DNA of 64,000 bases. Origin: a virus (taxonomy: Duplodnaviria > Heunggongvirae > Uroviricota > Caudoviricetes). The stretch lies in IMG/VR virus record IMGVR_UViG_3300010370_000025, one strand, 5' to 3'. Below, in pieces: positions 44,114-64,000 of the stretch. Positions within the stretch are counted from its first letter, which is position 1; every line of letters begins with the position of its first letter. The notes beneath the pieces are model-generated. The model was not told where the DNA came from and did no database searches. It was given only the letters and a program-made list of their open reading frames with translations. The position numbers and the translations under genes were made by a program.

Positions 44114-44279
44114 TTTTGAATCTAGATATCGTAAATGGCATACTTATATGTCTTATGTTAAGAGTGGTATTCGTATTGTTGCATTTGGCGGATTGGCATT
44201 AGGATTGATTGGAGCTGCATTTACAGCAACTCTATTACTTATTGCTGAATTAGTTGGTGTAGCAGAGGAGTGGGTATGA
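44106..44279 (+). CDS. Small predicted membrane protein (57 aa), missed by the ORF track
   Basis: ATG at 44106, a hydrophobic stretch 'IRIVAFGGLALGLIGAAFTATLLLIAELVGV', and a stop that overlaps the next ATG. Confidence 0.3.
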   Translation: MSDFESRYRKWHTYMSYVKSGIRIVAFGGLALGLIGAAFTATLLLIAELVGVAEEWV

Positions 44280-47052: not shown

Positions 47053-47812
47053 TAATGATTTTGATGTGATATATGATGAGTCTGGCTTTGTAGTAGGTCA
47101 GGTAAGTAAACCAATCTCTGCATCTAATAAAATTAAGCAAAGGTTACAAGATGCCAATCATCGCTATTATGCCAATGATAACATTAGCAAATTTTTGGAC
47201 GATAATACTCGTCAGCAGCTTATTGACGAAGTAGCAACTAAATTCGATGGTGTGCTTCGTTCACTGTTAATTGACGTTGATAATGATCCAAACTCTAAAG
47301 GTACAGCTAAGCGTCTCGCTAAGATGTATATTAATGAGATTATGAGAGGTAGATATCATGACGAACCAGACGTTACCTCATTTCCAAATGATGGCTCTCA
47401 TGGGACAGACCCTTATAAAGGTATGTTGGTTGTTAGGGCTGAACTTAAGTCTATGTGTAGTCATCACCATCAACCTGTTACTGGTACAGCATATATTGGT
47501 GTCATACCTAATACCCATGTTATTGGTCTCAGTAAGTACATTCGTATTGCGCAGCATTGTGCGCGACGTGGAACGCTACAGGAAGAACTTTGCGGAGACA
47601 TAGCAAAGGCAATTAGCTCTGCTACACAGTCAAAAGATGTAGGTGTGTATATTGAAGCAACTCATGGGTGCTGTGAGAACAGAGGTATTAGCGCGTCTAA
47701 CTCACTTACGCAAACAGCTGTGCTTATGGGTGACTTCCTTACTGATCCTTCAGTAAAGAACGAGTTCTATAGTAATATTAAGTTACAAACAAGTCGCTAT
47801 TCTTGTAACTAA
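47045..47812 (+). CDS. folE: GTP cyclohydrolase I (FolE)
   Basis: 'CSHHHQPV' and 'HVIGLSKYIRIAQHCARRGTLQEEL'. ATG at 47045 (track 47009). Confidence 0.8.
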   Translation: MTDNDFDVIYDESGFVVGQVSKPISASNKIKQRLQDANHRYYANDNISKFLDDNTRQQLIDEVATKFDGVLRSLLIDVDNDPNSKGTAKRLAKMYINEIMRGRYHDEPDVTSFPNDGSHGTDPYKGMLVVRAELKSMCSHHHQPVTGTAYIGVIPNTHVIGLSKYIRIAQHCARRGTLQEELCGDIAKAISSATQSKDVGVYIEATHGCCENRGISASNSLTQTAVLMGDFLTDPSVKNEFYSNIKLQTSRYSCN

Positions 47813-47870
47813 TTGAAATCATTGATAAAAAATAACAGTTGATTTCTTAACCTGTTGATATTATTATAAT
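47812..47870 (+). promoter_or_regulatory. Intergenic region carrying two copies of the ATTGAAATCATTGA/AACCTGTTGATA motif and TATAAT-like elements (putative sigma70-like early promoter)
   Basis: Motif shared with the 30011-30081 array. Confidence 0.4.
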
Positions 47871-47902
47871 AATTATAGGCTAATAAATGGAGATTTACAC
47901 CT

Positions 47903-48115
47903 ATGATTAATCTTGACAAATATGTACAACAGGTATGGAAAGCAGAAACTACAGAAAAGAAGCGAGAAGCTTTTAAAGAGCTTCTCGCAATTTCCCATGC
48001 TAAGACAGAAACTAAAGTAAAGGCGCTTAGAGATATTCAAACTCTTTCAGGTAAAAAGCTTGACACCTTTGCTACAAATTTTGCTTTTTCTGGTTACGGA
48101 CTTAAGGTAAAGTAA
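47903..48115 (+). CDS. Small hypothetical protein
   Basis: ORF only. Confidence 0.3.
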   Translation: MINLDKYVQQVWKAETTEKKREAFKELLAISHAKTETKVKALRDIQTLSGKKLDTFATNFAFSGYGLKVK

Positions 48116-48116
48116 T

Positions 48117-48551
48117 ATGACGTGGTATAAGAATGCTGAAGGTAGACATGGTGCTGCAGGAGCTAAAGGTGATGCAGGTGAAGAACTTGTCAAACATTAT
48201 CTAGAAGAAAGTAATATCAATTACGAGCATAAGACTGATATTGACAGTCAAGTTAATAAAAAGATTGACTTCATTGTAGAAGGTACTACAATGGATGTTA
48301 AGACTAATGCATACAAAGATTTTCTTGCAGTAGAAATTGCTACATCAAAAGGTAAACCAGGGTGGCTTTATACTTCTACTGCAGAAGAGATTTACGGTGT
48401 AGATTTAGAAAAAGAAGAGATATACAGATATCTACGTGAAGAGATGATTCAGTATGCAGCAGATAATGCGCATCGATTTAAAGTAACAAAAAATAATTCA
48501 GTACTACTTTGGGTACATAAAGATAATAAAATGATTGAGAGATTGCAATGA
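48117..48551 (+). CDS. Hypothetical protein (possible PD-(D/E)xK nuclease fold: 'IDFIVEG...MDVKT')
   Basis: Weak motif resemblance only. Confidence 0.3.
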   Translation: MTWYKNAEGRHGAAGAKGDAGEELVKHYLEESNINYEHKTDIDSQVNKKIDFIVEGTTMDVKTNAYKDFLAVEIATSKGKPGWLYTSTAEEIYGVDLEKEEIYRYLREEMIQYAADNAHRFKVTKNNSVLLWVHKDNKMIERLQ

Positions 48552-49339
48552 AGATAGCACATGAAGCACCAATAAGCATTTTTCCTCAAGTACAGCGCAT
48601 GACTGATTATGATTATGCGCTTGTTCACTTATTTGAATCTAATATGTTTTACTATCGCATGTTTAAAGATGCAGTTATTAACGGGCGTGAAGTTATTTTA
48701 GATAATTCTATTTTTGAATTGGGATATGCATTTGACGGTGATTCATATCATAATTGGATTTTAACTTTAAGCCCTACTTGGTATATTGTGCCTGATGTAT
48801 TAGAAGATACAAATGGTACTCTTAATAGTCTTAATAAGTGGTTTTCAAAGTTTGATATTCCAAAGCCTATTAAGTCTATTGGAGCTATTCAAGGTACTAC
48901 CTACGATGAAATTGTAGAGTGTTATCAGGGGGTTGAACCTTTTGTAGATAAGGTTGCTATATCATTTGATTTTTCTTATTATATTAAGTCAACAGAATAT
49001 TTAAAGCCTGATAATAAGTATTATGCTTGGATGCTTGGCCGTCAAAAGCTATTGAAAGATTTGCTTAATGATGGTATTATCAATACTAATAAACCCCATC
49101 ACCTTCTTGGGTGCGCATTACCTCAAGAGTTTTTAGCTTATAAAGATTATAAGTGGATTGACTCTGTAGATACTTCTAATCCTATTGTACATGGATTAAA
49201 TGGTATAGCGTATAAACCTAATGGTTTAGATGAAAAGATTTCTACTAAACTTATTGATTATATGACTGAGAGTGTTACTGATACTCAACTAGAATTTATT
49301 AAAGGTAATATTGAACAGTTTAGAAAGTTTTGTAAGTGA
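48548..49339 (+). CDS. tRNA-guanine-transglycosylase-fold protein (DpdA-like 7-deazaguanine DNA transglycosylase candidate)
   Basis: TGT-like motifs 'ILDNSIFELG' (cf. DSGGFQ), 'HLLGCALP' (cf. LMGVGTP) and 'IDSVDTSNP' (cf. GVDMFDCV). It is embedded among que genes. Confidence 0.5.
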   Translation: MKIAHEAPISIFPQVQRMTDYDYALVHLFESNMFYYRMFKDAVINGREVILDNSIFELGYAFDGDSYHNWILTLSPTWYIVPDVLEDTNGTLNSLNKWFSKFDIPKPIKSIGAIQGTTYDEIVECYQGVEPFVDKVAISFDFSYYIKSTEYLKPDNKYYAWMLGRQKLLKDLLNDGIINTNKPHHLLGCALPQEFLAYKDYKWIDSVDTSNPIVHGLNGIAYKPNGLDEKISTKLIDYMTESVTDTQLEFIKGNIEQFRKFCK

Positions 49340-49884
49340 AACCTTGGATTGCGCTCTTTAGTAATACTGGTAGCGAGCTCAAAAGGATCTGCGATCATTT
49401 TGATATATGGCCTACATCTGTAATTACTAATAATTTTAACTCGGATGATTGGCGTCATAATATTCCAGAAGATATTGTGACAATGATGTCACCTAGCGCT
49501 ATTCACGCCGGGTTTAAGCATATGTATAAAAGGCAGTTTGTTACTCTACATGGGTATATGAGAATATTGCCTCCAGAAGCATGTGAAATGCATGATGTAT
49601 ATAACGGGCATCCAGGCGCTATCAATCTTTATCCTGAACTTAAAGGTAAAGATCCTCAAGAGCGAGTGTGGAATGATCTAGGTAAATATGAGTTTATTGG
49701 TTCAGTTGTGCATAAAGTTACTGAAGAGCTTGATGGTGGTGAGATTGTAAGTAAAGTCTTTTGCGAAAACACTTGCACTTCTAAAGAAGAGCTCTATAAT
49801 ACAATTAGAGAAACTTCATTTAGATCATGGAAAAACTTTCTTTCAACTCATTTTGAGAGAGAGCTAGGAGTAAATAATGTCTGA
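49336..49884 (+). CDS. PurN/Fmt-family formyltransferase domain protein (DpdN-like candidate)
   Basis: 'NGHPGAINLYPELKG' and 'SVVHKVTEELDGGEIVSKVF' match the PurN catalytic-loop pattern (H..D). Confidence 0.7.
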   Translation: MKPWIALFSNTGSELKRICDHFDIWPTSVITNNFNSDDWRHNIPEDIVTMMSPSAIHAGFKHMYKRQFVTLHGYMRILPPEACEMHDVYNGHPGAINLYPELKGKDPQERVWNDLGKYEFIGSVVHKVTEELDGGEIVSKVFCENTCTSKEELYNTIRETSFRSWKNFLSTHFERELGVNNV

Positions 49885-50122
49885 CGCAATTAAACCTGAT
49901 CATTATAAAGCAGGTAATGCATTGTATAGCTGTATCGATGTTATTGAAGATCTTTGTAAAGGTACAAAGAACGATACGTTTACAGATTATAATAGATTTC
50001 AAGCTTTTAAGTATATCTGGAGAGCAGGTAATAAAGATCCTGTACTTCAAGATCTTAAGAAAGCAGTTAGATTTTTAGAATTTGCTATTGCATACGAGGA
50101 AAAGAAGAATGGTAAAAATTGA
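49877..50122 (+). CDS. DUF3310-like small protein (paralog 1)
   Basis: Shared motifs with 51059-51472: 'PDHY', 'FKYIWRAGNKDP' and 'DLKKA..FLE'. Confidence 0.45.
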   Translation: MSDAIKPDHYKAGNALYSCIDVIEDLCKGTKNDTFTDYNRFQAFKYIWRAGNKDPVLQDLKKAVRFLEFAIAYEEKKNGKN

Positions 50123-51059
50123 GGATATTGCATCAAAGCATTTAGGTAAAGCTGGCGACGGTTCGGTAGTTAAGCCTTATGTTACACCAGATAATATTGA
50201 CCCTAGTCTTTTAGTAGGCGTTCCTCGTTATCTTAATCGCATTCAGTATGCAATTGATGAAAACAACCTTCCTTTTGAAGGTTTTGATACTTGGAATTGC
50301 TATGAGTTTTCTGCATTAACTGATAATGGATTTCCTGTATGCGGGGTAATTCGTTGTGTATATTCTAGCAGCTCTAAGAATATTGTAGAGTCAAAGTCTC
50401 TCAAGCTTTATATGAACTCTTATAATATGGCAAGGCTTGGTAAAAGTGTTAAAGAGGTGACTGAAAACGCAGTTGCAACTATCCGTAAAGATCTTGTAGA
50501 GGTTCTTGGATTAGCTGATGAAAATGATTTGAATGTTTCATTTTGTGATGATCAAAGCCCTTCATATGAACCTATCAATGAGCCATATAAGTCAGCATTT
50601 GTTAAGCTTGAATATGTTAATGACATTGAAAATATGACGTTTGATCATTATAATGAAGATCCTAAGATTCTTCAAGTTATACCAACTAATAATTCATCGG
50701 TAGAATTTAAATGGAAGTCATCTGTACTTCGCTCTAATTGTAGAGTAACCAATCAACCCGACTGGGGTGATGTTTTTATTTCTATTAAAGGCGATAATAC
50801 AATTACTTCAGAATCTTTACTCCAATACTTAGTATCTATGCGTAAAGAAAATCACTTTCACGAAGAAATTTGTGAATGCATTTATAAGAGATTATATGAT
50901 CTACTTAATCCAGAAGAGTTGTTTGTAGCTTGTCTTTATACACGTAGAGGCGGTATAGATATTAATCCAGCTCGCGCTACTAATAAAGAGGTAGTTATGA
51001 AACATGCTTCTATGCTTTATAATTCATCAATTAATAATATTAAAACTTTGAGGCAATAA
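50109..51059 (+). CDS. queF: NADPH-dependent 7-cyano-7-deazaguanine reductase QueF (two-domain type)
   Basis: QueF signature 'ESKSLKLYMNSY'. ATG at 50109 (track 50082). Confidence 0.7.
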   Translation: MVKIEDIASKHLGKAGDGSVVKPYVTPDNIDPSLLVGVPRYLNRIQYAIDENNLPFEGFDTWNCYEFSALTDNGFPVCGVIRCVYSSSSKNIVESKSLKLYMNSYNMARLGKSVKEVTENAVATIRKDLVEVLGLADENDLNVSFCDDQSPSYEPINEPYKSAFVKLEYVNDIENMTFDHYNEDPKILQVIPTNNSSVEFKWKSSVLRSNCRVTNQPDWGDVFISIKGDNTITSESLLQYLVSMRKENHFHEEICECIYKRLYDLLNPEELFVACLYTRRGGIDINPARATNKEVVMKHASMLYNSSINNIKTLRQ

Positions 51060-51472
51060 TGACAAAAGCTAGTAAGAGTAATATGTTTGAAAAGAGTGCA
51101 GCAGAAGAGCCGTTTTTAGCTACTATGGGTTCAACAGAACCGTTCGGTGCAGTAGGATCTTCTATTAGTGTAGATAATGTTAGCTTTACAATGCAAGAAC
51201 CTGCTTATATATCTACTCAGTACGACGTCAATCAAGAAACAGTAGATCATCCAGATCATTATGGTGGTGCTGATAATCCTTATGAAGCAATTAAGGTTAT
51301 TCGCGCTTGGGACCTTGGATTTAGTCTAGGTAATACAGTAAAATATATTTCACGTGCAGGTAAGAAAGATCCTAATAAGCGTCTTGAAGACTTGCAAAAA
51401 GCACTTTGGTATTTAGAAGAAGAGATTCAGTATGAATTTGCAAAAAGCCTTGGACCACGTTCCGGATACTAA
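51059..51472 (+). CDS. DUF3310-like small protein (paralog 2, with an N-terminal extension)
   Basis: 'PDHYGG', 'VKYISRAGKKDP' and 'DLQKALWYLEEE'. Confidence 0.45.
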   Translation: MTKASKSNMFEKSAAEEPFLATMGSTEPFGAVGSSISVDNVSFTMQEPAYISTQYDVNQETVDHPDHYGGADNPYEAIKVIRAWDLGFSLGNTVKYISRAGKKDPNKRLEDLQKALWYLEEEIQYEFAKSLGPRSGY

Positions 51473-52205
51473 ACATAATGTTGTATCAGTTCTCTCCGGA
51501 GGGCTCGACTCTACTATTATGACTTATATTCTTGTACGTAAGTATGGTGCAAATAGAGTCTTTGCACTTTCATATAACTACGGACAGAAGCAAAAAGTAG
51601 AACTTGAAATGGCAGCTAAGACATGTGAGTATCTTGGCGTAGCACATAAGGTTCTTGATCTAAGCATCCTAGGTGATATTGTTAAGAACGTCTCTGCTAA
51701 CATTGGTGGTAGTGATGTTAATATGCCTACTATTAAGGATGTGCTTGGAGATCCTCAACCTAAGACATACGTACCCTTCCGTAATATGATTCTTAATTCG
51801 TTAGCATTCTCGTTTGCAGAAGCTAATAAAGCAAGTCATGTATTTACTGGATTACAAGTACATGATGAATATGGTTATTGGGATACTACTCAGAAGTTTG
51901 TAGATAGTATGAATGCAGTAGCAGATCAAAATCGTACTCATAAAGTTAAACTAGAAGCGCCTTTTAGTCTTCTTTCTAAGTATGATGAACTTATGATAGC
52001 TAAAGAACTTGGTAATGTTCGTTTAGAATATACTCTTACCTGCTATGATCCAGATGAACAAGGTCGTTCATGCGGTATTTGCCCATCATGCTCTGAACGT
52101 CTTCAAAATTTTATTAAAGCAAATATGAGAGACCCTATTCAATACCAACCAGGTAGAACTGTTGATTGGGATAGGTTTCTTATTAACGGTGGTGTAAGCT
52201 ATTAA
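51432..52205 (+). CDS. queC: 7-cyano-7-deazaguanine synthase QueC
   Basis: PP-loop 'SGGLDS' and a C-terminal zinc motif 'CGICPSCSERL'. Confidence 0.8.
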   Translation: MNLQKALDHVPDTKHNVVSVLSGGLDSTIMTYILVRKYGANRVFALSYNYGQKQKVELEMAAKTCEYLGVAHKVLDLSILGDIVKNVSANIGGSDVNMPTIKDVLGDPQPKTYVPFRNMILNSLAFSFAEANKASHVFTGLQVHDEYGYWDTTQKFVDSMNAVADQNRTHKVKLEAPFSLLSKYDELMIAKELGNVRLEYTLTCYDPDEQGRSCGICPSCSERLQNFIKANMRDPIQYQPGRTVDWDRFLINGGVSY

Positions 52206-52849
52206 TGTGCAGTATATTTGGCAGTTTTAGTACTGAAAAGTTAAAAGAGTTAGCTGAGCTTAATTTATATAGAGGTCAGCACTCTTATTCTTTTTCATAC
52301 TATGATATCCTTAAAAGACAAATCACCTTTATGCAGAAAGATTTAGGTGAATTGCCTATTAATGACATTAATATACCTGAAGGGCATTATGCAATAGCAC
52401 ATATGCAAGCTCCCACTACAGGTAATAAAAGAGCTAACACTATACACCCGGCTACTATAGGCGTGCATAGTCTTTGGCATAATGGTATTATTAAAGATCA
52501 TTGTGTAAAAAATATGTCACGTAATACCGTTTTTATTGAAAATGGTGATTTAGATTATCTTTCTTGGGATACTTATTTAATTCTCCATCAGTATGTTTAT
52601 CAAGGCAATATAAATAATATAGATGGTACATTTTCATGCGTATACTATAGTGAGCGTGATGGATTGAGATTGTTTCGTAATGAGATATCACCGCTTTTTA
52701 TTGATAAAGAGCACAACATATCCTCAACTAAATTTAACGATTCAGAATCGCTAATGCCTAATATTATCTGGCAATTTTTGCCAGGTGAAGGTATAATGTC
52801 AATTGATACCTTTAAAACAGTAGAAAACCCTTATTATTTTGGAATATAA
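52205..52849 (+). CDS. Class-II (Ntn) glutamine amidotransferase-like domain protein, free-standing downstream of queC
   Basis: Begins 'MCSIFG', i.e. a nucleophile Cys right after Met as in AsnB/GATase-II. TAATG overlap with queC. Confidence 0.5.
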   Translation: MCSIFGSFSTEKLKELAELNLYRGQHSYSFSYYDILKRQITFMQKDLGELPINDINIPEGHYAIAHMQAPTTGNKRANTIHPATIGVHSLWHNGIIKDHCVKNMSRNTVFIENGDLDYLSWDTYLILHQYVYQGNINNIDGTFSCVYYSERDGLRLFRNEISPLFIDKEHNISSTKFNDSESLMPNIIWQFLPGEGIMSIDTFKTVENPYYFGI

Positions 52850-52852
52850 TTC

Positions 52853-53362
52853 ATGATGATTCATATTGCATCTAAAGAGACTGGATCTTCTCTTACTAAT
52901 TTAGTTGAAGCAGATATTCAACCTAATGCTGTAGATCTTAGAGTGAGTAAAATTTTCTCTATTAATCAAAATACTTTTGTTATCGGTGAAGATGATGATG
53001 GCAAAGAGACAAAAATTCATCGAGGTTCTACTGAAGTATATCCAGATGAGTACGGCTATTATACTCTTGACCCTGGCTCATATGAAGTAATTATGGAAAA
53101 TATTATTTCAGTGGGAGCTGATGAAGCGGGGTGGGTTATTACTCGTTCTACTCTTAATCGTAATGGTGTATATATTACTAGCGGGTTATATGATTCAGGT
53201 TATAATGGTGTCATGGCTGGCGCACTTCATGTAACTAGAGGTACTGCCCGTATTAAGAAGGGTACTCGAGTAGGGCAATTCCTATTATTTAAGTCTCAAT
53301 CTCTTAAGAAATATGATGGAGATTACGGTATCGGTAAGGCGCATGATCAAAAATATAATTGA
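52853..53362 (+). CDS. dUTPase/dCTP-deaminase-fold protein
   Basis: 'SGLYDSGYNGVMAGALHV' resembles the dUTPase/dCD motif III region. Predicted beta-rich. Confidence 0.45.
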   Translation: MMIHIASKETGSSLTNLVEADIQPNAVDLRVSKIFSINQNTFVIGEDDDGKETKIHRGSTEVYPDEYGYYTLDPGSYEVIMENIISVGADEAGWVITRSTLNRNGVYITSGLYDSGYNGVMAGALHVTRGTARIKKGTRVGQFLLFKSQSLKKYDGDYGIGKAHDQKYN

Positions 53363-54419: not shown

Positions 54420-55097
54420 ATGAAACTTAGTGAACAGACTATTAATATTTTAAAGAACTTTTCAGTTATTAATAATAACTTGCTTGTTAACCCAGGTAAT
54501 ATTCTTACTACTGTTGCCCCGCAATCACGTTCCGTGTACGCTAAAGCAAACGTAGAAGAAACTTTTCCAAAGCAATTTGCTATCTATGAATTGAATAAGT
54601 TTCTTGGTGTAGTATCTCTCTTCAAGGAACCAGAGCTTGAGTTTGGTGATATGTCAGTTAAGATTGTCTCAGGTAGACAATCAGTAAGCTATACATATGC
54701 AGACCCATCTATGGTTATTGCACCAGATCCTAATAAGGATATTAATTTTCCGACAGCAGATATTGAGTTCTCCATTTCTCAAGAAGAACTTCAGCGCGTC
54801 GTAAGGGCTGCAGGTGTTCTTCAGTTGCCGGAAATTGCAGTGACTGGTGATGGTGCGAACATTACCGTCACTGCTACTAATTCAAAGAATCCAACTACTG
54901 ATGTATTCAGTATTGAGGTAGGTGAGACTAATCATACTTTTAATATGTTAATTAAAGCAGAAAATATTATTAAGTTAATTTCTGCTAACTATGAAGTAAA
55001 GATTACATCGCGCGGACTAGCACAATTTAAGTCTAATAATGTAATCTATTATATTGCAACAGAAGCTAATAGCACATTTAATAAGGATGAAAATTAA
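54420..55097 (+). CDS. gp45: Sliding clamp gp45
   Basis: Colinear with T4 gp45 ('MKLS..T..LKNF..IN'). Confidence 0.85.
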   Translation: MKLSEQTINILKNFSVINNNLLVNPGNILTTVAPQSRSVYAKANVEETFPKQFAIYELNKFLGVVSLFKEPELEFGDMSVKIVSGRQSVSYTYADPSMVIAPDPNKDINFPTADIEFSISQEELQRVVRAAGVLQLPEIAVTGDGANITVTATNSKNPTTDVFSIEVGETNHTFNMLIKAENIIKLISANYEVKITSRGLAQFKSNNVIYYIATEANSTFNKDEN

Positions 55098-55690
55098 TGA
55101 ACGTATATATTCTACTTGACAGATCAGGTTCTATGTCAAGTCTTTGGAATGAAGCAATTGGCGCTATTAATGCATACGTAAAAAAGCTTGACAAAAAGAC
55201 CAAGATCTTTTTATCAACTTTTGATAATGAAAGCTATGATGTTCTTCGTAACTCTAGTGTAAAAGAGTGGAAGGATATTGGTGAGAAAGAATCGCATCCT
55301 AGAGGTATGACTCCTCTTTATGATTCTTGTGCACGTATTATGAATCGTGCAATTGAAGATAATAGCGATAAAACTATTCTTGTCGTAATGACAGATGGTT
55401 TTGAGAATTGCTCAAGAGAGCATACTCGTGAACAGATTAAAGCTAAGATTAAAGACTTTGAAAAGAAAAACTGGGAAGTTGTTTTTCTCGGAGCAAACTT
55501 TGATAAGGTAGATTCAGTTGCATCTGATCTCGGGCTAGCGTATAATAAGTTTACAAATATTACTACAAATAACCTTAGATCGTATATGATGGGTAGTCTA
55601 GCTGACGCTACTGTAGCATATACTACTGCAGGTACTGCAGTAAATATTACTGACAAAGATAAGATGTCTGCTACTAAAGCATCAGTCTAA
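55097..55690 (+). CDS. von Willebrand factor A domain protein (MIDAS 'DRSGSM') inserted between gp45 and gp44
   Basis: vWA motifs 'LLDRSGSM', 'T....' and 'VVMTDGFEN'. Confidence 0.7.
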   Translation: MNVYILLDRSGSMSSLWNEAIGAINAYVKKLDKKTKIFLSTFDNESYDVLRNSSVKEWKDIGEKESHPRGMTPLYDSCARIMNRAIEDNSDKTILVVMTDGFENCSREHTREQIKAKIKDFEKKNWEVVFLGANFDKVDSVASDLGLAYNKFTNITTNNLRSYMMGSLADATVAYTTAGTAVNITDKDKMSATKASV

Positions 55691-56665: not shown

Positions 56666-57078
56666 TGAATCCGTTTGATTTTGTTAACGCTATTAATGGC
56701 AAAAAGCAAGACATCATTAGAGCATCTGACAACCCTGATCTTGCTGAGAAGCAATATATACCTTTTATTATTAATAAAGCATTCTCATATCATATCGATA
56801 CAGTGCTTTACTCAAATGAGATGAATAAAGCAGCTCATATTGATTCTAAACTCCAAAACGACTATTACCTAAATAGTATACGCACTGGAAAGCGTTTCTC
56901 TAAGTGGCATAAGCGCCAGGAAAACTTAGATATAGACGTTATTCAGGAATATTTTAAAGTAAACTATTTAAGAGCTACTGAGATAGCAAAATTGCTATCA
57001 AGGGAACAGCTCGACCTTATAAGAATAAGAATAACAAAAGGTGGTAATAATGAGCTTCGATCTAAGTCAGCTAGTTGA
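56665..57078 (+). CDS. gp62: Clamp loader small subunit gp62
   Basis: Position and a pattern similar to T4 gp62. Confidence 0.55.
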   Translation: MNPFDFVNAINGKKQDIIRASDNPDLAEKQYIPFIINKAFSYHIDTVLYSNEMNKAAHIDSKLQNDYYLNSIRTGKRFSKWHKRQENLDIDVIQEYFKVNYLRATEIAKLLSREQLDLIRIRITKGGNNELRSKSAS

Positions 57079-57445
57079 AGTGAGATTAAAGAATGCTGAA
57101 GATTTTCTCAAAGTTCGCGAAACTTTATCTCGAATCGGCTTAGCGTCAAAAAAAGACAACACTCTTTATCAGTCATGCCATATTCTACATAAACAAGGCA
57201 AATATTATATTGTGCATTTTAAAGAGTTGTTTATGCTTGACGGTAAAGAAGCAACCTTCTCAGAAGGTGATATTGCTAGACGTAACAGAATTGTTACGCT
57301 TCTAGACGAATGGGAATTAATAGAAGTTGTTGATAACAGTAAAATATTAAATCCTATTGCACCCCTTAATCAGATTAAAATTATTCCTTTCAAAGAAAAG
57401 AATAGCTGGAATCTTATTACTAAATATACTATAGGTGGAAGATAA
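57041..57445 (+). CDS. regA: Translational repressor RegA
   Basis: Strong colinear similarity to T4 RegA ('KNAEDFLKVRETLSRIGLASKKD.TLYQSCHILHKQG.YYIVHFKE'). Confidence 0.85.
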   Translation: MVIMSFDLSQLVEVRLKNAEDFLKVRETLSRIGLASKKDNTLYQSCHILHKQGKYYIVHFKELFMLDGKEATFSEGDIARRNRIVTLLDEWELIEVVDNSKILNPIAPLNQIKIIPFKEKNSWNLITKYTIGGR

Positions 57446-57463: not shown

Positions 57464-58534
57464 ATGTATAATTATGATGATGTTAGAGTAGTTCATTTAG
57501 AAATTACTCAAAAGTGTCAAGCTTCCTGTCCGATGTGTGACAGAAATCAAAATGGGGGCTTAATCAACCCCCATCTTTCTTTAGCTGAACTCTCCTTAGA
57601 AAATTGTAAGCAAATATTTGAGCCTGCTTTTATTAAGCAGCTTAACTACATGTATATGTGTGGTAATTTAGGTGATCCTATTATTGCTAATGATACTCTA
57701 GAAGTATTTGATTACTTTCGCACACATAACCCTAACATGAAACTAAGCATGAATACCAATGCAGGTGCTAGAAATCAGCAATGGTGGCGAGATCTTGCTA
57801 AAGTATTAGGCCCGAAGGGGATGGTAAGATTCTCTATAGATGGATTAGAAGATACTAATCATATCTACAGAAGAGGTGTTCAATGGGATAATGTAATGAG
57901 CTCTCTTACCAGTTTTATTGATGCTGGAGGTAACGCTATATGGGATTATTTAATATTTGATCATAATGCACATCAAGTAGAAGAAGCAAAAAAATTATCA
58001 GTTAATCTAGGTGTAAAAACTTTTGTAGAAAAGAAAACATCTAGATTCTATAGTACAGCAAAAACATCTCTTAAAGATACTCATACTGTAAAAGATCGTA
58101 AAGGTAACGATCAATATGATCTAAAACCAGTAGATACACCTCTTAATAATAAAATTAATAATACTATAGATAAGCATGGTAGTCTATCTAACTATTATGA
58201 TACAACAGAAATAGTTTGTAAAGTAAAAGAACAAAAAAGTATTTTTATTACTGCTGAAGGTCTAGCAATGCCTTGTTGCTGGACTGCTTCCCGTATGTAT
58301 AAGTGGTGGCATAAAGATCCTAAAGTAGAACAGGTGTGGCAATTTATTAAAGATACAGATAGAATAAACGTTCTTAAACACGGTATTAAAGATGTGCTTA
58401 ATAATGGTGTATTTCAAGATATAGAAGTAAGCTGGGGGCTTCGATCAGTAGCAGAAGGTAAACTGAAAGTATGCTCTGAGAAATGTGGTAAAGAGTTTGA
58501 TCCGTTTAAGGAACAATTTGTTAATGCAAAATAA
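57464..58534 (+). CDS. Radical SAM enzyme with a C-terminal SPASM/twitch-like Cys cluster (rSAM-A)
   Basis: 'ITQKCQASCPMC' (CxxxCxxC), 'CGNLGDP', and a C-terminal 'C-x12-G-x4-CC ... CSEKCGKEF'. Confidence 0.65.
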   Translation: MYNYDDVRVVHLEITQKCQASCPMCDRNQNGGLINPHLSLAELSLENCKQIFEPAFIKQLNYMYMCGNLGDPIIANDTLEVFDYFRTHNPNMKLSMNTNAGARNQQWWRDLAKVLGPKGMVRFSIDGLEDTNHIYRRGVQWDNVMSSLTSFIDAGGNAIWDYLIFDHNAHQVEEAKKLSVNLGVKTFVEKKTSRFYSTAKTSLKDTHTVKDRKGNDQYDLKPVDTPLNNKINNTIDKHGSLSNYYDTTEIVCKVKEQKSIFITAEGLAMPCCWTASRMYKWWHKDPKVEQVWQFIKDTDRINVLKHGIKDVLNNGVFQDIEVSWGLRSVAEGKLKVCSEKCGKEFDPFKEQFVNAK

Positions 58535-59927
58535 AATATCATCTACATTCTGCGCTTTACCTTGGGTACATTTAAGCACAAGACCAGACGGTTCAATGCG
58601 TGTGTGTTGCACAGCTAATGCATCAGGAGTACAAGATCCTGATAGTAGTAAGCGTGTTAATGGTGGTAATGCAGGTATAGTTAAGAATCAAAATAATATG
58701 CCAGCAAATCTCAACCACACATCACTTAATGATGCGTGGAATAATGAGTACATGTGCAACGTGCGTAAAACAATGCTTAAAGGTGAAAAGCCAACTTCTT
58801 GTCTCAAATGTTATAAAGAAGAAGAAGCAGGTGTTATCAGTAAACGTCAATGGGAAACTGATTACTGGGGTAAGATATTTGATCTTAATGAGATAGTATC
58901 GGAGACTAAAGAAGATGGTTCTATTCCAGCAAAAATTAGATATTTAGATCTTAGACTAGGTTCTAAATGTCAGCTTGCATGTGTTATGTGTTCACCGCAT
59001 GATAGTTCAGGTTGGGTAAAAGAATGGAATGAAATTTATCCTAAGATTGAAAATGAAAATTTAAAACGTAATAGTAATTGGCATATGAAGGGCCAAGTAG
59101 GTGGTGCTAGCTATAACTGGCATCTTAATAATCCTACATTCTGGGAAGAGCTTTATGAGCAGATTCCTCATATGTATCAACTATACTTTGCTGGTGGTGA
59201 AAGCACTATCATTAAAGAACATTATCTTCTTCTGGAAGAGTGTATCAAAAGAGGATATGCAAGCCAAATTGAACTTAGATATAACTCTAACGGGCTTGAA
59301 TTGCCTGAAAAGCTTTTCGAGCTTTGGTCGCATTTTAGGTTAGTTAAATTTCATTTTTCTATAGATGCATTAGGCAAGCAGAACGAATATATTCGTTATC
59401 CTACTGATTGGAAGACTATAGAAAATAACTTACACATTCTTGATAATACCCCTGATAATGTAGAAGTAACAATAGCTTGTACCTTGATGGCATTAAACAT
59501 ATACTATTTTCCAGATTTTATAAAGTGGAAACTTACTCAAGGCTTTAAAAAGATCAATAAATATCCATACGGTGCTGGAACTATTAATACCCATTTTGCG
59601 TATTACCCTCCTCAGCTTAACGTTAAAGTCCTGCCTAAAGAGTTTAAACAAAAAGTCGTTGACAAATACGAAAACGATTTCTTTCCTTGGTTAGAAGAAA
59701 ACTGGAAACTTGCAACAGGCATACCTGACACTGTAAGTAAAGAAAAGTGGTTTAGTGAGAATTATAGTATTAAAAGATATAAAAGTATTCTAAACTTTAT
59801 GAATAAAGAAGACTGGAGTCAAAGATTACCAGAGACTGCAGAATGGATTAAACGTATAGATGATACCCGTGGTTTGAACTTCTATGAAATATTTCCTGAT
59901 TTTGATTGGTTAAAAAATTATGAGTAA
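58524..59927 (+). CDS. Radical SAM enzyme with an N-terminal SPASM-like Cys-rich domain (rSAM-B)
   Basis: N-terminal 'FCALPW..DGSMRVCC' and 'SCLKCYKEEEAG', followed by a core 'LGSKCQLACVMC' and 'FAGGEST'. ATG at 58524. Confidence 0.55.
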   Translation: MQNKISSTFCALPWVHLSTRPDGSMRVCCTANASGVQDPDSSKRVNGGNAGIVKNQNNMPANLNHTSLNDAWNNEYMCNVRKTMLKGEKPTSCLKCYKEEEAGVISKRQWETDYWGKIFDLNEIVSETKEDGSIPAKIRYLDLRLGSKCQLACVMCSPHDSSGWVKEWNEIYPKIENENLKRNSNWHMKGQVGGASYNWHLNNPTFWEELYEQIPHMYQLYFAGGESTIIKEHYLLLEECIKRGYASQIELRYNSNGLELPEKLFELWSHFRLVKFHFSIDALGKQNEYIRYPTDWKTIENNLHILDNTPDNVEVTIACTLMALNIYYFPDFIKWKLTQGFKKINKYPYGAGTINTHFAYYPPQLNVKVLPKEFKQKVVDKYENDFFPWLEENWKLATGIPDTVSKEKWFSENYSIKRYKSILNFMNKEDWSQRLPETAEWIKRIDDTRGLNFYEIFPDFDWLKNYE

Positions 59928-61263
59928 GACGTTTTGTCCTATGCCTTGGAATTCAGTTAACCTGCGCAATAATGGTGATATGCGCATTTGCTGTAACGCC
60001 AATTCATATACTAAAAATAGAGGTATTCTTAGAAAAGAGGACGGTACTGCATTTAATATCGGTAGAGATGATATTAATGAAGCTAGAAACTCTTCTACAC
60101 TAAAAGAAGTAAGAGCTACTATGCTTAAGGGTGAATGGCATTCTGAGTGTGAGCGCTGCCGACAAGAAGAAGTAAATGGTATTAGAAGTAGAAGAGAGTA
60201 TGAATCAGAACTCTGGAATACTGTAGAGGAAAATATTAAAGATAAAACGTTAGAAGACGGTACTATTAATGCAGAAGAGATTCCTATAGATTATTTTGAT
60301 ATTAGATACGGTAATTTTTGTAATTTAAAATGTCGTATGTGTGCTCCTACTGAATCACATACATGGTTTAGTGATTATGTAGAATTATACAAAACTAACA
60401 AGTATAAAGATACTCATGATACAATAGTACTTACTAAAAATAAAAAAGGTAGATGGGTAACAGATCAATACGATTGGTTTAAAAACTCTAATCATTACTG
60501 GCATCAATTTGAAAAATATACAAAAAATGCTAAAAAGTTTTATATAGTAGGAGGTGAACCTCTTATTATTGAAGAACATATTGATTCTTTAGAGCGTTTA
60601 ATTTATAATGGTAATTCTAAAGAGGTAGTTATAGAGTATAATACTAATTTAACAAACGTTACACCACGTATTCTTGAATTATGGAAAAACTTTAAGCAGA
60701 TTAGAATTGGTGCATCAATTGACGGGTTTGGTGATGTGTTTGAATATCAGAGAACCCCAGCAAATTGGGATAGTGTCTATGAAAATTTGCTTAAGTTGGA
60801 TACTAATACGGATATTAATTTAGTAGGCTGGTTTGCATTTACTGTAACACCTATTAATATATTTCATTTACCAGAATTTATGAAATGGAAATTAACAGAT
60901 AGTAAGCTTAATAGATTTAATACTATAAGAGGTGTACGTAAAGTAATATCTCACCATATGTGTCACGCACCTAGACATTATAATGTTAAGTGTCTTCCAG
61001 ACGAGATAAAACAACAAGTAGATGTACATTTTGCAGAGTATAAAGAATGGGCTAAGTGTCAACCAGAAGATGTATATAAAGATTTCTGTAAACTATTGAA
61101 TGGTGTTTCTCGTTTTATGAACTCTGAAAGATACTACGATCCTCATTTTACTGATTTTATTGATATAACCGCTAAACTGGATAAAATTAGAAACCAAGAT
61201 GTGAGAAAAATTGTCCCTCAATTTACAAAATACTTTGATGCATATTACGAACGAAAATCCTGA
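59920..61263 (+). CDS. Radical SAM enzyme, paralog of rSAM-B (rSAM-C)
   Basis: 'FCPMPW..NGDMRICC', 'ECERCRQEEVNG', 'YGNFCNLKCRMC' and 'VGGEPL'. Confidence 0.55.
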   Translation: MSKTFCPMPWNSVNLRNNGDMRICCNANSYTKNRGILRKEDGTAFNIGRDDINEARNSSTLKEVRATMLKGEWHSECERCRQEEVNGIRSRREYESELWNTVEENIKDKTLEDGTINAEEIPIDYFDIRYGNFCNLKCRMCAPTESHTWFSDYVELYKTNKYKDTHDTIVLTKNKKGRWVTDQYDWFKNSNHYWHQFEKYTKNAKKFYIVGGEPLIIEEHIDSLERLIYNGNSKEVVIEYNTNLTNVTPRILELWKNFKQIRIGASIDGFGDVFEYQRTPANWDSVYENLLKLDTNTDINLVGWFAFTVTPINIFHLPEFMKWKLTDSKLNRFNTIRGVRKVISHHMCHAPRHYNVKCLPDEIKQQVDVHFAEYKEWAKCQPEDVYKDFCKLLNGVSRFMNSERYYDPHFTDFIDITAKLDKIRNQDVRKIVPQFTKYFDAYYERKS

Positions 61264-62131
61264 TTGTTGTATAGTTACTTTATTTTTACATAACGTTTGT
61301 AATTATAAATGTTCTTACTGCAACGATTATCACAGAGATGGGTCATATAGGTGGCCAGATGACTGGGAAGCATATACCAAACTTATTAGTAAAGTGAAAG
61401 AAAATAATAAAAACGTATATGTTGAAGTATTAGGAGGTGAACCTACTCTGTGGCCCAGATTTCAAGAGTTTGTAGATTATATTAGCAGTGATGATGTATT
61501 TGTAGAGTATGCTACTAATGCATCGCGCACTCTTAATTATTGGAGCAAATTTAAAACACAAAATGCTTTTGTATTTCTATCTTGGCATCATGAGTTTGCT
61601 GATGATGATCATTTTGTAAAAGTTGCAGAGATAATGCAACACAAAGCTTCAGTATCAGTTCCTTTAATGGTAGTGCCTGATAATTTTGAACGTGCTAAAG
61701 CGCTGTATGAGAGACTCAAACCGTTAAACATAGAAGTAACTCCTAAATTTACTCGTACATCTATTAACGGACATTCATACTTTAATTATACAGACGAACA
61801 AAAAGAATGGATTCAAAATAATAGTTTTAATAAAATGAAACCATTTGGTATTAACTGGAAAATACCTCAAACATTACATTTTAATGGTGAACCTATTAGG
61901 TTTATGTCTGTACTAGATAGACAGATGCATAAATTTAAAGGTTATACATGTACTGCAGGCATAAAAAGACTTATGGTAGATCCTAACGGTGATATTAAAA
62001 GATGTACTAAAAAGGTAGGTGGTATTATAGGCAACATATTTAAAGAATATAAACTGCCAGATACACCAATAGTGTGTACTTATGAAGCTTGCCCTTGTAA
62101 ACTAGATGCGGTTGTTGAAAAATGGAGTTAA
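61238..62131 (+). CDS. Compact radical SAM-SPASM enzyme (rSAM-D)
   Basis: 'HNVCNYKCSYC', 'LGGEPTL', and a C-terminal 'C-x12-G-x4-C' plus 'CTYEACPC'. ATG at 61238. Confidence 0.6.
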   Translation: MHITNENPDCCIVTLFLHNVCNYKCSYCNDYHRDGSYRWPDDWEAYTKLISKVKENNKNVYVEVLGGEPTLWPRFQEFVDYISSDDVFVEYATNASRTLNYWSKFKTQNAFVFLSWHHEFADDDHFVKVAEIMQHKASVSVPLMVVPDNFERAKALYERLKPLNIEVTPKFTRTSINGHSYFNYTDEQKEWIQNNSFNKMKPFGINWKIPQTLHFNGEPIRFMSVLDRQMHKFKGYTCTAGIKRLMVDPNGDIKRCTKKVGGIIGNIFKEYKLPDTPIVCTYEACPCKLDAVVEKWS

Positions 62132-63372
62132 ATCTTCTTGACACTTACAATTTAAAAGATCCTGTTTGTATGTACAAATTAGGATGGAGTACTGTAAGAC
62201 TGTACAACAGTGTTAGTCAGAGTTGTCATAGAGTTGTATCAAACGATATTATAACACCAGAGACTTTTGATAGTTTTCATAATACTCCTTCAAAAATTAA
62301 AGCTAGGGAGTCTATGTTCAATGGTCAGTGGCCAGAAGAAACTGAGCATGTAGGATGCAATTATTGTAAAAAAATAGAAGATGCAGGAGGCCTTAGCGAT
62401 AGACATATTATTAATAGATCTTATAATTCTCAATATGTCACAGAAGAAACAAAAAGCAATCCTCGTTCTAGCATAACCACCCCCACAATGTTAGAGGTTT
62501 ATTTTACAAATTTATGTAATATGAGTTGCATATATTGTAATAGTCTATTTAGTAGTAAATGGGAAGCAGAAGATTTAAAACATAATTTTGATAAAAATAA
62601 ATTTAGACTAGAAAAATTAAGAGAAGGAAGAAAGACTTATTCAGCAATGAAAGTTGCTTTCTGGAAATGGTTTGAAAAAAATGTTTCTAAACTAAAATCG
62701 TATAATATATTAGGAGGAGAACCTTTTTATCAGCAAGAGTTAGTAGAAAATATAGAATTCTTTAACAATAACGAATGTCCAGATTTAGAAATAAATATAT
62801 TTTCTAATTTAAAAGTGGAACCAGAAAAATTTAAAGATATTTTAAATAGTTTTTCTAATCTTATTAAATTAAAAAAGATAAAATCTCTTACACTTTTTTG
62901 TAGTTTTGATTGTTGGGGGCCTCAAATTGAATACATTAGATATGGGTTAAATTTAAATAAGTGGGAAGAAAACTTTAATATTTTAATAAATGATTATCCA
63001 GAAATTAAAATAGTCTTGCACAGCACTCTTACGTCTCTTACGTTTGATACGTTTCCTCAACTATGTGAAAAAGTAAAAAAATGGCAGACTATCCGACAAT
63101 TACGTCATAGTATTTCTATTGCAGGCGGCAATCATTGGCATCCTGGTATTTTCTCGAAAGATTTTTTTACAGAAAAAATTAATGAAGCTATATCGTTTAG
63201 TAATGACAAAGATTTTATTGTTAAATTAGACGGGTTTAATAAATCATTTAATGCTCATAATGAAAATAAACATGAAATTAGAATACTTAAACAAGAGTTA
63301 GATAGATTGGATAAAATTAGAAATACTAACTGGAAATTATTATGGCCTTGGTTAGACAAATATGAAGTATGA
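62122..63372 (+). CDS. Radical SAM enzyme with an N-terminal Cys-rich extension (rSAM-E); very AT-rich
   Basis: 'FTNLCNMSCIYC' and 'LGGEPF'. Its N-terminal 'GCNYCKKIEDAGGLSDR' aligns with the rSAM-B and rSAM-C N-domains. Confidence 0.5.
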   Translation: MELNLLDTYNLKDPVCMYKLGWSTVRLYNSVSQSCHRVVSNDIITPETFDSFHNTPSKIKARESMFNGQWPEETEHVGCNYCKKIEDAGGLSDRHIINRSYNSQYVTEETKSNPRSSITTPTMLEVYFTNLCNMSCIYCNSLFSSKWEAEDLKHNFDKNKFRLEKLREGRKTYSAMKVAFWKWFEKNVSKLKSYNILGGEPFYQQELVENIEFFNNNECPDLEINIFSNLKVEPEKFKDILNSFSNLIKLKKIKSLTLFCSFDCWGPQIEYIRYGLNLNKWEENFNILINDYPEIKIVLHSTLTSLTFDTFPQLCEKVKKWQTIRQLRHSISIAGGNHWHPGIFSKDFFTEKINEAISFSNDKDFIVKLDGFNKSFNAHNENKHEIRILKQELDRLDKIRNTNWKLLWPWLDKYEV

Positions 63373-64000
63373 TGACCTTACATTTGATATATTAGGTACA
63401 AAACGTCAAAGACCTATGTATCTTTCTTGTTTTACCAGAGCAAGATGTAATATGGATATGAAAAATTATCCTAAAGATCCTCATGAATATACAAAATACT
63501 TTATATCATATGTAGATAAATGGATAAAAGAACATAAACAAGTTAAGTATAATAATTTAGATTCTTTTAATCGAAAAGATGTTATACTAGGAACTACACA
63601 TCAATTAGACGAATTACATCTATTATATGGTAAAAGAATTGCAGTTTTTAAAGGTGAATACAAATATCACCGCAGGCTTACCAACTCAAACGTAAAGCAA
63701 ATTACATCTTATAAAGAACTTTTAGAAGGGGATGTATTAGTTGTATCATACCCTTCTTGTATTACAACTAATATTATAAAAGATTTTGATGAAACTTTAG
63801 ATTATTGTTTAAAAAATAATATACAAGTACATATAGACGGCGCATGGTTCGGTCAATGTAGAAATTTTAATTTTGATGTAAGTCACCCTGCAATATTATC
63901 TGTAAGTGTATCACTTTCTAAAGCATATGGAATGGGAAGTCAGCGTATCGGTATTAGATATTCAAGAAATATTACTACAGGTCCTATATCTATTATGAAC
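63362..64000 (+). CDS. Class I/II PLP-dependent aminotransferase-like protein (partial, runs off the window)
   Basis: 'VHIDGAWFG' (cf. the vDEAY region) and a PLP-lysine motif 'SLSKAYGMGSQRIGI'. Stop/start overlap with rSAM-E. Confidence 0.45.
   Translation, partial: MKYDDLTFDILGTKRQRPMYLSCFTRARCNMDMKNYPKDPHEYTKYFISYVDKWIKEHKQVKYNNLDSFNRKDVILGTTHQLDELHLLYGKRIAVFKGEYKYHRRLTNSNVKQITSYKELLEGDVLVVSYPSCITTNIIKDFDETLDYCLKNNIQVHIDGAWFGQCRNFNFDVSHPAILSVSVSLSKAYGMGSQRIGIRYSRNITTGPISIMN

Follow-up and report, generated by a model that had tools for sequence, protein, structure and literature searches.

A twitch-type domain ahead of the radical SAM core in tandem paralogs of a marine T4-like phage

Background

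The question raised by this locus is what a Cys-rich domain is doing in front of, and not behind, the core of a radical SAM (rSAM) enzyme. SPASM and twitch domains are described as C-terminal extensions of the rSAM core (PMC9012708). An earlier note on a 64,000-nucleotide stretch of viral DNA (the window, meaning the whole stretch that was analysed) described five tandem rSAM proteins, rSAM-A to rSAM-E, and claimed that rSAM-B and rSAM-C carry a SPASM-like Cys motif at the N-terminus. We examined the identity of this domain, its conservation, its relationship to canonical-order paralogs and the gene neighbourhoods in which it occurs. The source phage is a marine T4-like myophage of about 33% GC, and its capsid protein is 63-64% identical to the capsid proteins of HTVC008M, Mosig and Melnitz.

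Results

The five rSAM ORFs were found on the plus strand where the earlier note had placed them. rSAM-A (57464..58534) is a canonical-order radical SAM protein with the triad C18/C22/C25, and is followed by rSAM-B (58524..59927), rSAM-C (59920..61263), the small canonical-order rSAM-D (61211..62131; triad C30/C34/C37) and rSAM-E (62122..63372). The 5' part of a putative PLP-dependent gene comes next (63362..64000, plus strand, by frame translation) and runs past the window end. Genes of the array have starts that overlap the preceding stops; the public gene call for rSAM-B begins at the ATG at 58524. The array, which follows regA, extends beyond the window and comprises at least nine rSAM genes in approximately 14 kb, together with the PLP enzyme, methyltransferases and QueC-like PP-loop ATPases.

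Proteins were assigned to the NCBI family NF033640 ("N_Twi_rSAM") if their full-length HMM score reached the curated 170-bit cutoff. rSAM-B scored 424.7 bits over its full length, rSAM-C 355.4 bits and the divergent rSAM-E 207.3 bits, the last aligning over residues 14-413. A further paralog just past the window end (L001:16682-17833) scored 246.5 bits, bringing the N_Twi genes of the array to four, whereas rSAM-A (47 bits) and rSAM-D (32 bits) fell below the cutoff. The N_Twi genes here are three to four ancient paralogs, with 22-39% identity to each other, in one operon-like array. The N-terminal twitch architecture is not new, as NCBI already curates NF033640 as a family defined by that domain order, and RefSeq names the Bdellovibrio homolog WP_413940396.1 a 'twitch domain-containing radical SAM protein'. 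The proposal of a novel auxiliary Fe-S-type domain in an atypical position was therefore borne out as to the domain type and its position but not as to its novelty. Literature searches on the N-terminal twitch architecture and on NF033640 found no relevant paper, PHROGs gave nothing more specific than 'radical SAM domain-containing protein', and PDB sequence searches with rSAM-C, rSAM-B and the N-domain profile gave no meaningful match to any chain. When rSAM-B was compared by tblastn with isolated phages, only three weak matches were obtained (RsoM2USA and the Vibrio phages K566 and K567).

The N-terminal Cys motif was present in rSAM-B as C10-x12-G-x4-C28C29 ... C93-x2-C96 (DNA ~58551-58811, plus strand), ahead of the triad C149/C153/C156 (58968-58991, plus strand), and in rSAM-C as C6-x12-G-x4-C24C25 ... 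C77-x2-C80 (59935-60159, plus strand), ahead of C134/C138/C141 (60319-60342, plus strand). The triad lies 128-139 aa beyond the first twitch Cys, not about 150 aa as the earlier note had estimated. Pfam SPASM matched rSAM-B at residues 10-97 with 24.8 bits (GA 21.5) and rSAM-C, also above GA, at residues 6-80. A single match spans both the motif and the conserved block that follows it, so these are two halves of one twitch domain and not the separate elements that the earlier note had taken them for. Nor does rSAM-E keep only the second half, as was also suggested: C16-x18-C35 aligns with the first block, where this subfamily has the signature 'SCH' and not 'CC', and all four ligand-type Cys (C16, C35, C79 and C82; 62167-62367, plus strand) are retained ahead of the triad C132/C136/C139 (62515-62538, plus strand). 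An alignment of E-type orthologs kept the pattern C...SCH...CxxC, giving exactly four twitch Cys in this subfamily. The cores display the features of PF04055, namely the CxxxCxxC triad and the SAM-binding GGE motif in a partial TIM barrel; in rSAM-C the motif is an intact GGEP at residues 211-214. The order twitch, linker, rSAM core and helical C-terminal domain is common to rSAM-B, -C, -E and the fourth paralog, and in rSAM-C the last of these domains is Cys-free and runs from approximately residue 351 to 447.

Conservation was assessed in a diverse set of 86 family sequences taken from clusters at 50% identity, using rSAM-C numbering. The twitch Cys were near-invariant (C6 and C24 each in 85/86, C77 and C80 each in 86/86), with C25 somewhat more variable (75/86, about 87%), and the Cys of the radical SAM triad were present in all 86 sequences. 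The hairpin glycine G19 was kept in 82/86, and the block R-x2-M-L-x-G-...-C-x2-C-x3-E-x2-G-x2-S-x-R, whose conservation had been noted previously, was likewise maintained across the family (R65 86/86, S90 84/86, R92 79/86). In these 86 sequences there was no conserved Cys outside the twitch domain and the CxxxCxxC triad, including downstream of the core. A profile of the N-domain recovered 3785 representatives of 50%-identity clusters at E<=1e-3 among 1.84 billion proteins, and in matches of ~400-470 aa the domain occupied residues ~1-125. The twitch domain preceded the triad in 369 of 370 locus genes, and two-module fusions of the form [Twi-rSAM]x2 also exist. Conservation of the N-terminal domain is thus far beyond chance.

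Isolated N-domains matched Pfam SPASM in 48 of 53 cases (best E 1.6e-9), and the match was to this Fe-S-type domain, not to PqqD. All the comparisons made at the level of the domain favoured a SPASM/twitch Fe-S fold over an RRE-like one for substrate recognition. AlphaFold models were of high confidence (pLDDT 95.9 for the full-length protein and 93.4 for the isolated domain) and placed strands at residues 12-15 and 20-22, between C6 and C24, and a helix at 75-85 that bears C77 and C80. The N-terminal domain shares homology with SPASM/twitch domains and resembles them in structure. The features described for twitch domains, a Cys-flanked beta-hairpin followed by a Cys-bearing helix with approximately four Cys in a fold like the first half of SPASM, were all found; the one departure is that the domain lies at residues ~1-95, ahead of the core, and not in a C-terminal extension. 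The seven-Cys SPASM arrangement (CX9-15GX4C...CX2CX5CX3C...C) was absent, with only C6, C24, (C25), C77 and C80 conserved. As four to five conserved Cys correspond to a one-cluster twitch and not to a seven-Cys SPASM domain, the sequences identify the domain as probably twitch-type, that is, a truncated SPASM with one cluster.

It could be argued that the domain is nevertheless a full SPASM domain with two auxiliary clusters, the missing ligands being supplied from elsewhere in the protein, since it is the SPASM model of Pfam that matches, 75/86 sequences have a fifth conserved Cys (C25) and rSAM-C has additional Cys at 348, 358, 380 and 390. We regard this as very improbable, because family-wide only four to five Cys are conserved, the E subfamily has exactly four, no CX2CX5CX3C segment is present and none of the downstream Cys of rSAM-C is conserved. 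It is equally improbable that the region is a structural module for zinc, of the zinc ribbon or treble clef kind, or a recognition domain without a metal, in view of the SPASM matches to 48 of 53 N-domains, above GA for rSAM-B and -C, the retained hairpin-G-x4-C signature with its glycine in 82/86, and the classification as twitch by NCBI curators. Zinc finger, two-cluster SPASM and RRE identities for the N-domain were all rejected on the SPASM matches, the Cys count and the absence of a PqqD match.

The canonical-order paralogs do carry C-terminal motifs, as claimed, in the form C-x13-G-x4-CC in rSAM-A and C-x12-G-x4-C in rSAM-D. In rSAM-A the motif is a twitch-like set of five Cys (C252, C271, C272, C337 and C341), kept in 89-103 of 103 A-family sequences; Pfam assigned 29.6 bits to Radical_SAM and 18.1 bits, below GA, to SPASM at residues 252-341. 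The C-terminal Cys of rSAM-D, with conservation assessed in the D family, are C247, C265, C289, C294 and C296. This protein matched Radical_SAM with 41 bits, and its best NCBIfam match was the STM4011 family with 64.5 bits, under the cutoff of 200.

The possibility of circular permutation was examined by comparison with the A family, whose C-terminus bears an N-domain-like pattern (C...CC...C-x3-C) and for which the best NCBIfam match to the rSAM-A core was N_Twi_rSAM (E 1.9e-12). Alignment of the N-domain with the A C-terminus by hhalign gave P = 6e-4, but a probability of 29%. With a doubled template, the best alignment ran contiguously from the C-terminal twitch of A into the core of A, scoring 116.7 compared to 109.2 for the single template, although this gain is only about 7 units. 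These sequence comparisons weakly suggest a permutation-like relationship of the N_Twi proteins to rSAM-A.

The gene that overlaps the end of rSAM-E encodes 302 aa (full gene L001:13422-14330). Its family profile matched AvtA 3g7q (E 4e-4) with D159, S184 and K187 invariant, and weak matches to Aminotran_1_2 and Pyridoxal_deC were obtained for 9/29 and 8/29 family members, respectively. The gene product is probably a divergent PLP-dependent protein of fold-type I, aminotransferase-like, and the gene recurs beside N_Twi genes in both phage and Bdellovibrionota loci.

Comparable arrays, the largest with 11 rSAM genes, are common among uncultured phages and among Bdellovibrionota. The genome scan used an 18-sequence alignment; as it relied on one sequence pattern and only the 80 closest matches were kept, the enrichment in Bdellovibrionota may be biased. 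Neighbours linked to sugars in Bdellovibrionota included GT2 glycosyltransferases, UDP-Glc dehydrogenase, an epimerase and DegT, but such genes were present in a minority of neighbourhoods and most neighbours had no family assignment. A Pfam census of 142 non-redundant Bdellovibrionota neighbouring genes showed no dominant family, and the top recurrent neighbour clusters mostly had no Pfam match, the exceptions being GT2, B12-rSAM, an SDR fragment and Asp/Asn hydroxylase.

Discussion

We conclude that rSAM-B, -C, -E and the fourth paralog are, with good confidence, NF033640 radical SAM enzymes with a twitch domain N-terminal to the (beta/alpha)6 core. They show no structural difference from the curated family; what distinguishes the present members is that they are phage-encoded, with three to four paralogs in one array.

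In BtrN the ligands of the auxiliary [4Fe-4S] cluster are all Cys (C169, C187, C232 and C235). BtrN, MoaA and BlsE likewise have one auxiliary cluster motif of hairpin-flanking Cys (C-x17-C) and a CxxC pair, and BlsE was among the top matches for the isolated N-domain. In these three enzymes, however, the twitch domain follows the core, whereas in the N_Twi proteins it precedes the core and a Cys-free helical domain forms the C-terminus. Enzymes such as anSME, PqqE, CteB, SuiB and SkfB (PF13186 / TIGR04085) have a seven-Cys C-terminal SPASM domain with two auxiliary clusters; in comparison, the N_Twi proteins have an N-terminal domain with four to five Cys and room for one cluster, no RRE and no precursor peptide.

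The conserved four are the Cys that precedes the beta-hairpin, the G-x4-C Cys that follows it and the helix-borne CxxC pair, and at this predicted site they would bind one fully Cys-ligated auxiliary [4Fe-4S] cluster. The cluster would adjoin the active site and may conduct or accept electrons from a substrate radical generated by 5'-deoxyadenosyl radical chemistry. The N_Twi order may derive from a relative with the canonical order, such as rSAM-A; a permutation-like rearrangement would have produced it, plausibly when tandem paralogs fused. Within the array, the N_Twi enzymes would perform successive tailoring steps in one multi-enzyme pathway, with other rSAMs, the PLP enzyme, methyltransferases and PP-loop ATPases as candidate partners. 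Our leading guess for the substrate, a (nucleotide-)sugar or glycan, goes back to the sugar-linked genes in a minority of neighbourhoods.

The array, including the N_Twi paralogs, might instead hypermodify nucleic-acid bases or nucleotides of phage DNA or tRNA and not sugars. A complete 7-deazaguanine (preQ0) gene set (QueE-like, QueD, FolE, QueF-like and QueC) lies approximately 5 kb upstream, the PP-loop ATPases in the array are QueC-like, a PP-loop protein also adjoins the N_Twi genes in Bdellovibrio, and adjacent PLP and rSAM enzymes serve phage thymidine hypermodification (PMC8989533). Against this, the characterised DNA-modifying rSAM is SPL-like and not twitch-type, neither a DNA-binding nor a base-flipping domain was found, and Bdellovibrionota chromosomes carry the same arrays next to glycosyltransferases and nucleotide-sugar enzymes. 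We consider a nucleic-acid substrate rather unlikely. Still less likely is a role in RiPP or protein maturation, with a peptide or a virion protein as the substrate. Many RiPP maturases have an RRE at the N-terminus, but here that position is taken by the twitch domain. Within the window, the genes of the array overlap so tightly that no small precursor ORF would fit between them, and the best structural match to the core, the nucleoside-sugar decarboxylase BlsE, also argues against a peptide substrate, even though RiPP maturases are numerous among SPASM enzymes (PMC9012708) and some related loci contain aspartyl/asparaginyl beta-hydroxylase genes.

Pelagimyophages have been described with rSAM gene cassettes in a variable 'host recognition cluster' (PMC7029224), a report that notes the cassettes only and describes no domain architecture or function. 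In both cases a marine T4-like myophage with a GC content near 33% carries rSAM insertions in a variable region, but the present array differs in following regA. More tentatively, a broader picture is possible: the N-terminal twitch may have come from circular permutation when tandem rSAM paralogs fused, and arrays such as this one, which marine T4-like phages share with predatory Bdellovibrionota, may encode an undescribed multi-step radical pathway. Its product would be a hypermodified sugar, glycan or nucleobase that serves where predator meets prey or phage meets host.

The mechanism of SPASM/twitch auxiliary clusters is still debated, and the N-terminal twitch family constitutes a natural experiment on the positioning of the auxiliary cluster relative to the SAM cluster. 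The high-confidence models and compact phage operons are good entry points to the N_Twi family, and the recurrent arrays suggest that abundant marine viruses hold a sizeable share of radical biochemistry yet to be explored.

Phage setting and gene order

The window belongs to a marine, T4-like myophage whose major capsid protein shares 72% identity with its counterpart in Stenotrophomonas phage DLP6 and 63-64% with the Melnitz, Mosig and HTVC008M proteins. Greedy ORF calling across the window placed 72 of 75 ORFs on the + strand. Directly upstream of the radical SAM (rSAM) genes are those for gp45 (sliding clamp; 54420-55097), gp44 (clamp loader), gp62 and RegA (57041-57445). A gene for a vWA-domain protein (weak Pfam VWA match; 55097-55690) is inserted between the gp45 and gp44 genes. 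Two regions that lie amid replication and recombination genes, 41480-42238 and 44270-44896, code for a NAD-dependent epimerase/dehydratase (GDP-mannose dehydratase-like) and a 2OG-Fe(II) oxygenase. After regA come five + strand rSAM ORFs with overlapping stop and start codons: rSAM-A (57464-58534), rSAM-B (58524-59927), rSAM-C (59920-61263), rSAM-D (61211-62131) and rSAM-E (62122-63372).

A complete 7-deazaguanine (preQ0) gene set was also observed upstream of the array. The region 45686-53362 encodes a QueE-like rSAM (45686-46522; weak assignment), QueD/PTPS (46510-47052), GTP cyclohydrolase I (47009-47812), a QueF-like protein (50082-51059), QueC (51432-52205), a 214-aa possible Ntn amidotransferase starting 'MCSIFG' (52205-52849) and a dCTP-deaminase-like protein (52853-53362), which suggests deazaguanine DNA modification.

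Conservation of the N-terminal cysteine domain

rSAM-B reads C10-x12-G-x4-C28C29, C93-x2-C96 and then the CxxxCxxC triad C149/C153/C156; rSAM-C reads C6-x12-G-x4-C24C25, C77-x2-C80 and then C134/C138/C141. The earlier note was therefore right to place a Cys motif ahead of the triad at the N-terminus of both proteins (C10-C29 and C6-C25), but its spacing of about 150 aa was too long, as 128-139 aa separate the first Cys from the triad. It had listed a further conserved block separately and allowed rSAM-E only that block. Motif and block proved to be one domain, and rSAM-E retains all four predicted ligand Cys (C16, C35, C79 and C82), with 'SCH' in its subfamily at the position of 'CC' in rSAM-B and rSAM-C.

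Conservation was assessed in 86 sequences, comprising rSAM-B, -C, -E, a fourth paralog from beyond the window and 82 sequences that each stand for a cluster at 50% identity. In rSAM-C numbering, C6 and C24 were each kept in 85, C25 in 75, and C77 and C80 in all 86, as was the triad; GGEP was kept in 84-85. R65, S90 and R92 of the second block were near-invariant, and no conserved Cys was found downstream of the core. A profile of the N-terminal ~125 aa of rSAM-B, -C and -E, searched against 1.84 billion representative proteins, matched 3785 at E<=1e-3, of which 811 reached E<=1e-10; within proteins of ~400-470 aa the match always lay at residues ~1-125. Among 145 fetched loci, the domain lay upstream of the triad in 369 of 370 domain-carrying genes, the sole exception being a weak case. 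The feature is real and conserved.

Homologs conserve 'TFCPLPW', which favours the ATG at 59920 as the rSAM-C start (59920-59941); this start overlaps the rSAM-B stop by 8 nt. The public gene call (P0001, 440 aa) begins at Met8 ('MPWNS...') and drops C6, the first putative twitch ligand; the start of database protein P0003 is miscalled likewise, with loss of the equivalent Cys.

Domain type and family

Several independent analyses indicate a SPASM/twitch fold. Pfam SPASM (PF13186; gathering score 21.5) matched residues 10-97 of rSAM-B at 24.8 bits and 6-80 of rSAM-C at 25.9 bits, and 48 of 53 isolated N-terminal domains of diverse members (best E 1.6e-9). AlphaFold2 modelled full-length rSAM-C with a pLDDT of 95.9 and pTM of 0.92, and the isolated domain with a pLDDT of 93.4. 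In the rSAM-C model, a beta-hairpin (strands 12-15 and 20-22) lies between C6 and C24/C25, and C77 and C80 are at the start of helix 75-85. The 4-5 conserved Cys and the absence of a CX2CX5CX3C segment speak strongly against a two-cluster SPASM domain; by its sequence we class the domain as a one-cluster twitch domain. The earlier description of a SPASM-like domain in an unusual position held for the SPASM-family Cys domain and its atypical order, but not for its type. The proteins run from twitch (~1-95) through a linker and a (beta/alpha)6 core (~125-350) to a Cys-free helical C-terminal domain, whereas a review presents SPASM/twitch domains as extensions at the C-terminus (PMC9012708).

The earlier note called this order atypical and suggested that it could mark a new auxiliary domain. 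However, NCBIfam NF033640 ('N_Twi_rSAM: twitch domain-containing radical SAM protein'; cutoff 170 bits) matched rSAM-B (424.7 bits), rSAM-C (355.4) and rSAM-E (207.3) end to end, and the Bdellovibrio sp. HCB2-146 homolog WP_413940396.1 bears its name in RefSeq, so the order is already recognised by curators. rSAM-B, -C and -E add new phage-encoded members to a family that is curated but has no characterised function. No PDB chain matched N_Twi proteins by sequence, profile search included, and no paper was found on the family or on an N-terminal twitch.

Relation to the canonical-order paralog

rSAM-A carries its triad at C18/C22/C25 and C252...C271C272...C337-x3-C341 at its C-terminus, with these Cys kept in 89-103 of 103 A-type sequences. 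The C...CC...CxnC layout is common to this C-terminus and the N-terminal domain of the N_Twi proteins. Profile-profile alignment of the two (P = 6e-4, probability 29%) put the hairpin, the middle N-rich segment and the CxxC region in register. Against two copies of the A-family alignment joined end to end, the N_Twi family aligned best along a contiguous path from the A C-terminal twitch across the junction into the A core, scoring 116.7 versus 109.2 for the core alone. Database proteins of ~800-870 aa contain two [twitch-rSAM] modules, the kind of tandem fusion that can give rise to a permutant. Together, these results are compatible with, and weakly support, an origin by circular permutation.

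Tandem complete modules were noted in proteins of ~800-1100 aa (P0128, P0130, P0151, P0164, P0177, P0217, P0269 and P0157), the last apparently ordered [twitch-rSAM]-[rSAM-twitch]. Two-module proteins may be genuine fusions, bearing on permutation by duplication, or read-through or gene-calling artefacts.

Arrays in phages and Bdellovibrionota

On the same contig (L001; window position = L001 position + 49940), the array extends beyond the window end by 7 kb or more (L001:13422-21323). From 63362 (63362-64000 in the window) lies a gene for a divergent PLP fold-type-I enzyme (profile match to AvtA 3g7q, E 4e-4). Its ~300-aa family, without Pfam or NCBIfam assignment, has invariant D159, S184 and K187 (Ser-x-x-Lys) in our alignment and a weak AvtA match, and is classed as a truncated enzyme of this type. 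In phages and Bdellovibrionota alike, the gene is conserved beside N_Twi_rSAM genes. Further past the window are a methyltransferase, an unknown gene, an rSAM, the fourth N_Twi_rSAM (L001:16682-17833; 246.5 bits to NF033640), two QueC-like PP-loop ATPases and two more rSAMs with one unknown gene between, which brings the rSAM genes to 9 or more within ~14 kb.

In 68 loci from related viral contigs, N_Twi genes averaged 2.6 and rSAM genes 5.1 per <=21 kb, with maxima of 7 and 11. Since the B-, C- and E-types are each conserved across phages (55-65%, 56-87% and 43-47% identity), we regard them as old paralogs with distinct roles. In BFVD, many 'uncultured Caudovirales phage' proteins have the full-length N_Twi fold (TM up to 0.86), with weaker matches to proteins of Vibrio phage KVP40 and of phi-pp2. 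Among the non-rSAM neighbours that recur in viral loci, the largest cluster (65 members, 199-924 aa; e.g. L036:3387-4091) had no Pfam match; its G-G-x2-G ... I-x2-f-D-i-D pattern is reminiscent of Rossmann-fold SAM methyltransferases, and one locus (L026) has three copies upstream of an A-type rSAM.

Bdellovibrionota are predatory bacteria. The closest cellular relatives were overwhelmingly from this group (mostly MAGs and one isolate), a skew that may be partly methodological as only the best 80 matches to a single peptide pattern were taken. Among these matches (L071-L145), N_Twi homologs often occur several per genome in multi-rSAM arrays, with A/B pairs ~45% (A) and ~55-60% (B) identical to the phage proteins, a PLP enzyme and PP-loop ATPases. 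The identity of the B-type proteins suggests gene exchange between phage and Bdellovibrionota. Other recurrent neighbours were GT2 glycosyltransferases (17 loci) and B12-binding rSAMs (8 loci). In the Bdellovibrio isolate, an N_Twi gene is followed by overlapping UDP-glucose/GDP-mannose dehydrogenase, NAD-dependent epimerase/dehydratase and DegT-type aminotransferase genes. A few matches in 'Verrucomicrobiales', 'Rickettsiales', 'Gammaproteobacteria' and 'Acidimicrobiaceae' MAGs resemble mis-binned phage contigs.

Possible function

With triad and GGEP motif, the N_Twi proteins are, as far as sequence tells, intact rSAM enzymes, and their N-terminal domain has a twitch fold and four invariant Cys. 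These Cys would coordinate all the irons of a single auxiliary [4Fe-4S] cluster, as is the case in BtrN. The predicted arrangement would differ from that of MoaA, where three Cys leave one Fe site open (PMC9012708). The cluster may chiefly conduct or accept electrons from a substrate radical, as has been proposed for the auxiliary clusters of BtrN and SuiB (PMC9012708). The paralogs, canonical-order rSAMs, PLP enzyme, methyltransferases and PP-loop ATPases could perform successive tailoring steps on one scaffold.

That scaffold may be a (nucleotide-)sugar or glycan, given the Bdellovibrionota neighbours, BlsE as top structural match and a weak sugar O-methyltransferase match among array genes past the window. 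Nucleobase or nucleic-acid hypermodification is a rather unlikely alternative, drawn from the adjoining complete preQ0 pathway in the window, the PP-loop paralogs and the precedent of PLP and rSAM enzymes in thymidine hypermodification (PMC8989533). Peptide or protein modification is improbable. All of the remaining probability goes to another small molecule.

The finding draws attention to a very large family lacking any biochemical or structural characterisation, to its weakly supported permutation relation to co-located canonical paralogs, and to dense rSAM arrays common to marine phages and Bdellovibrionota.
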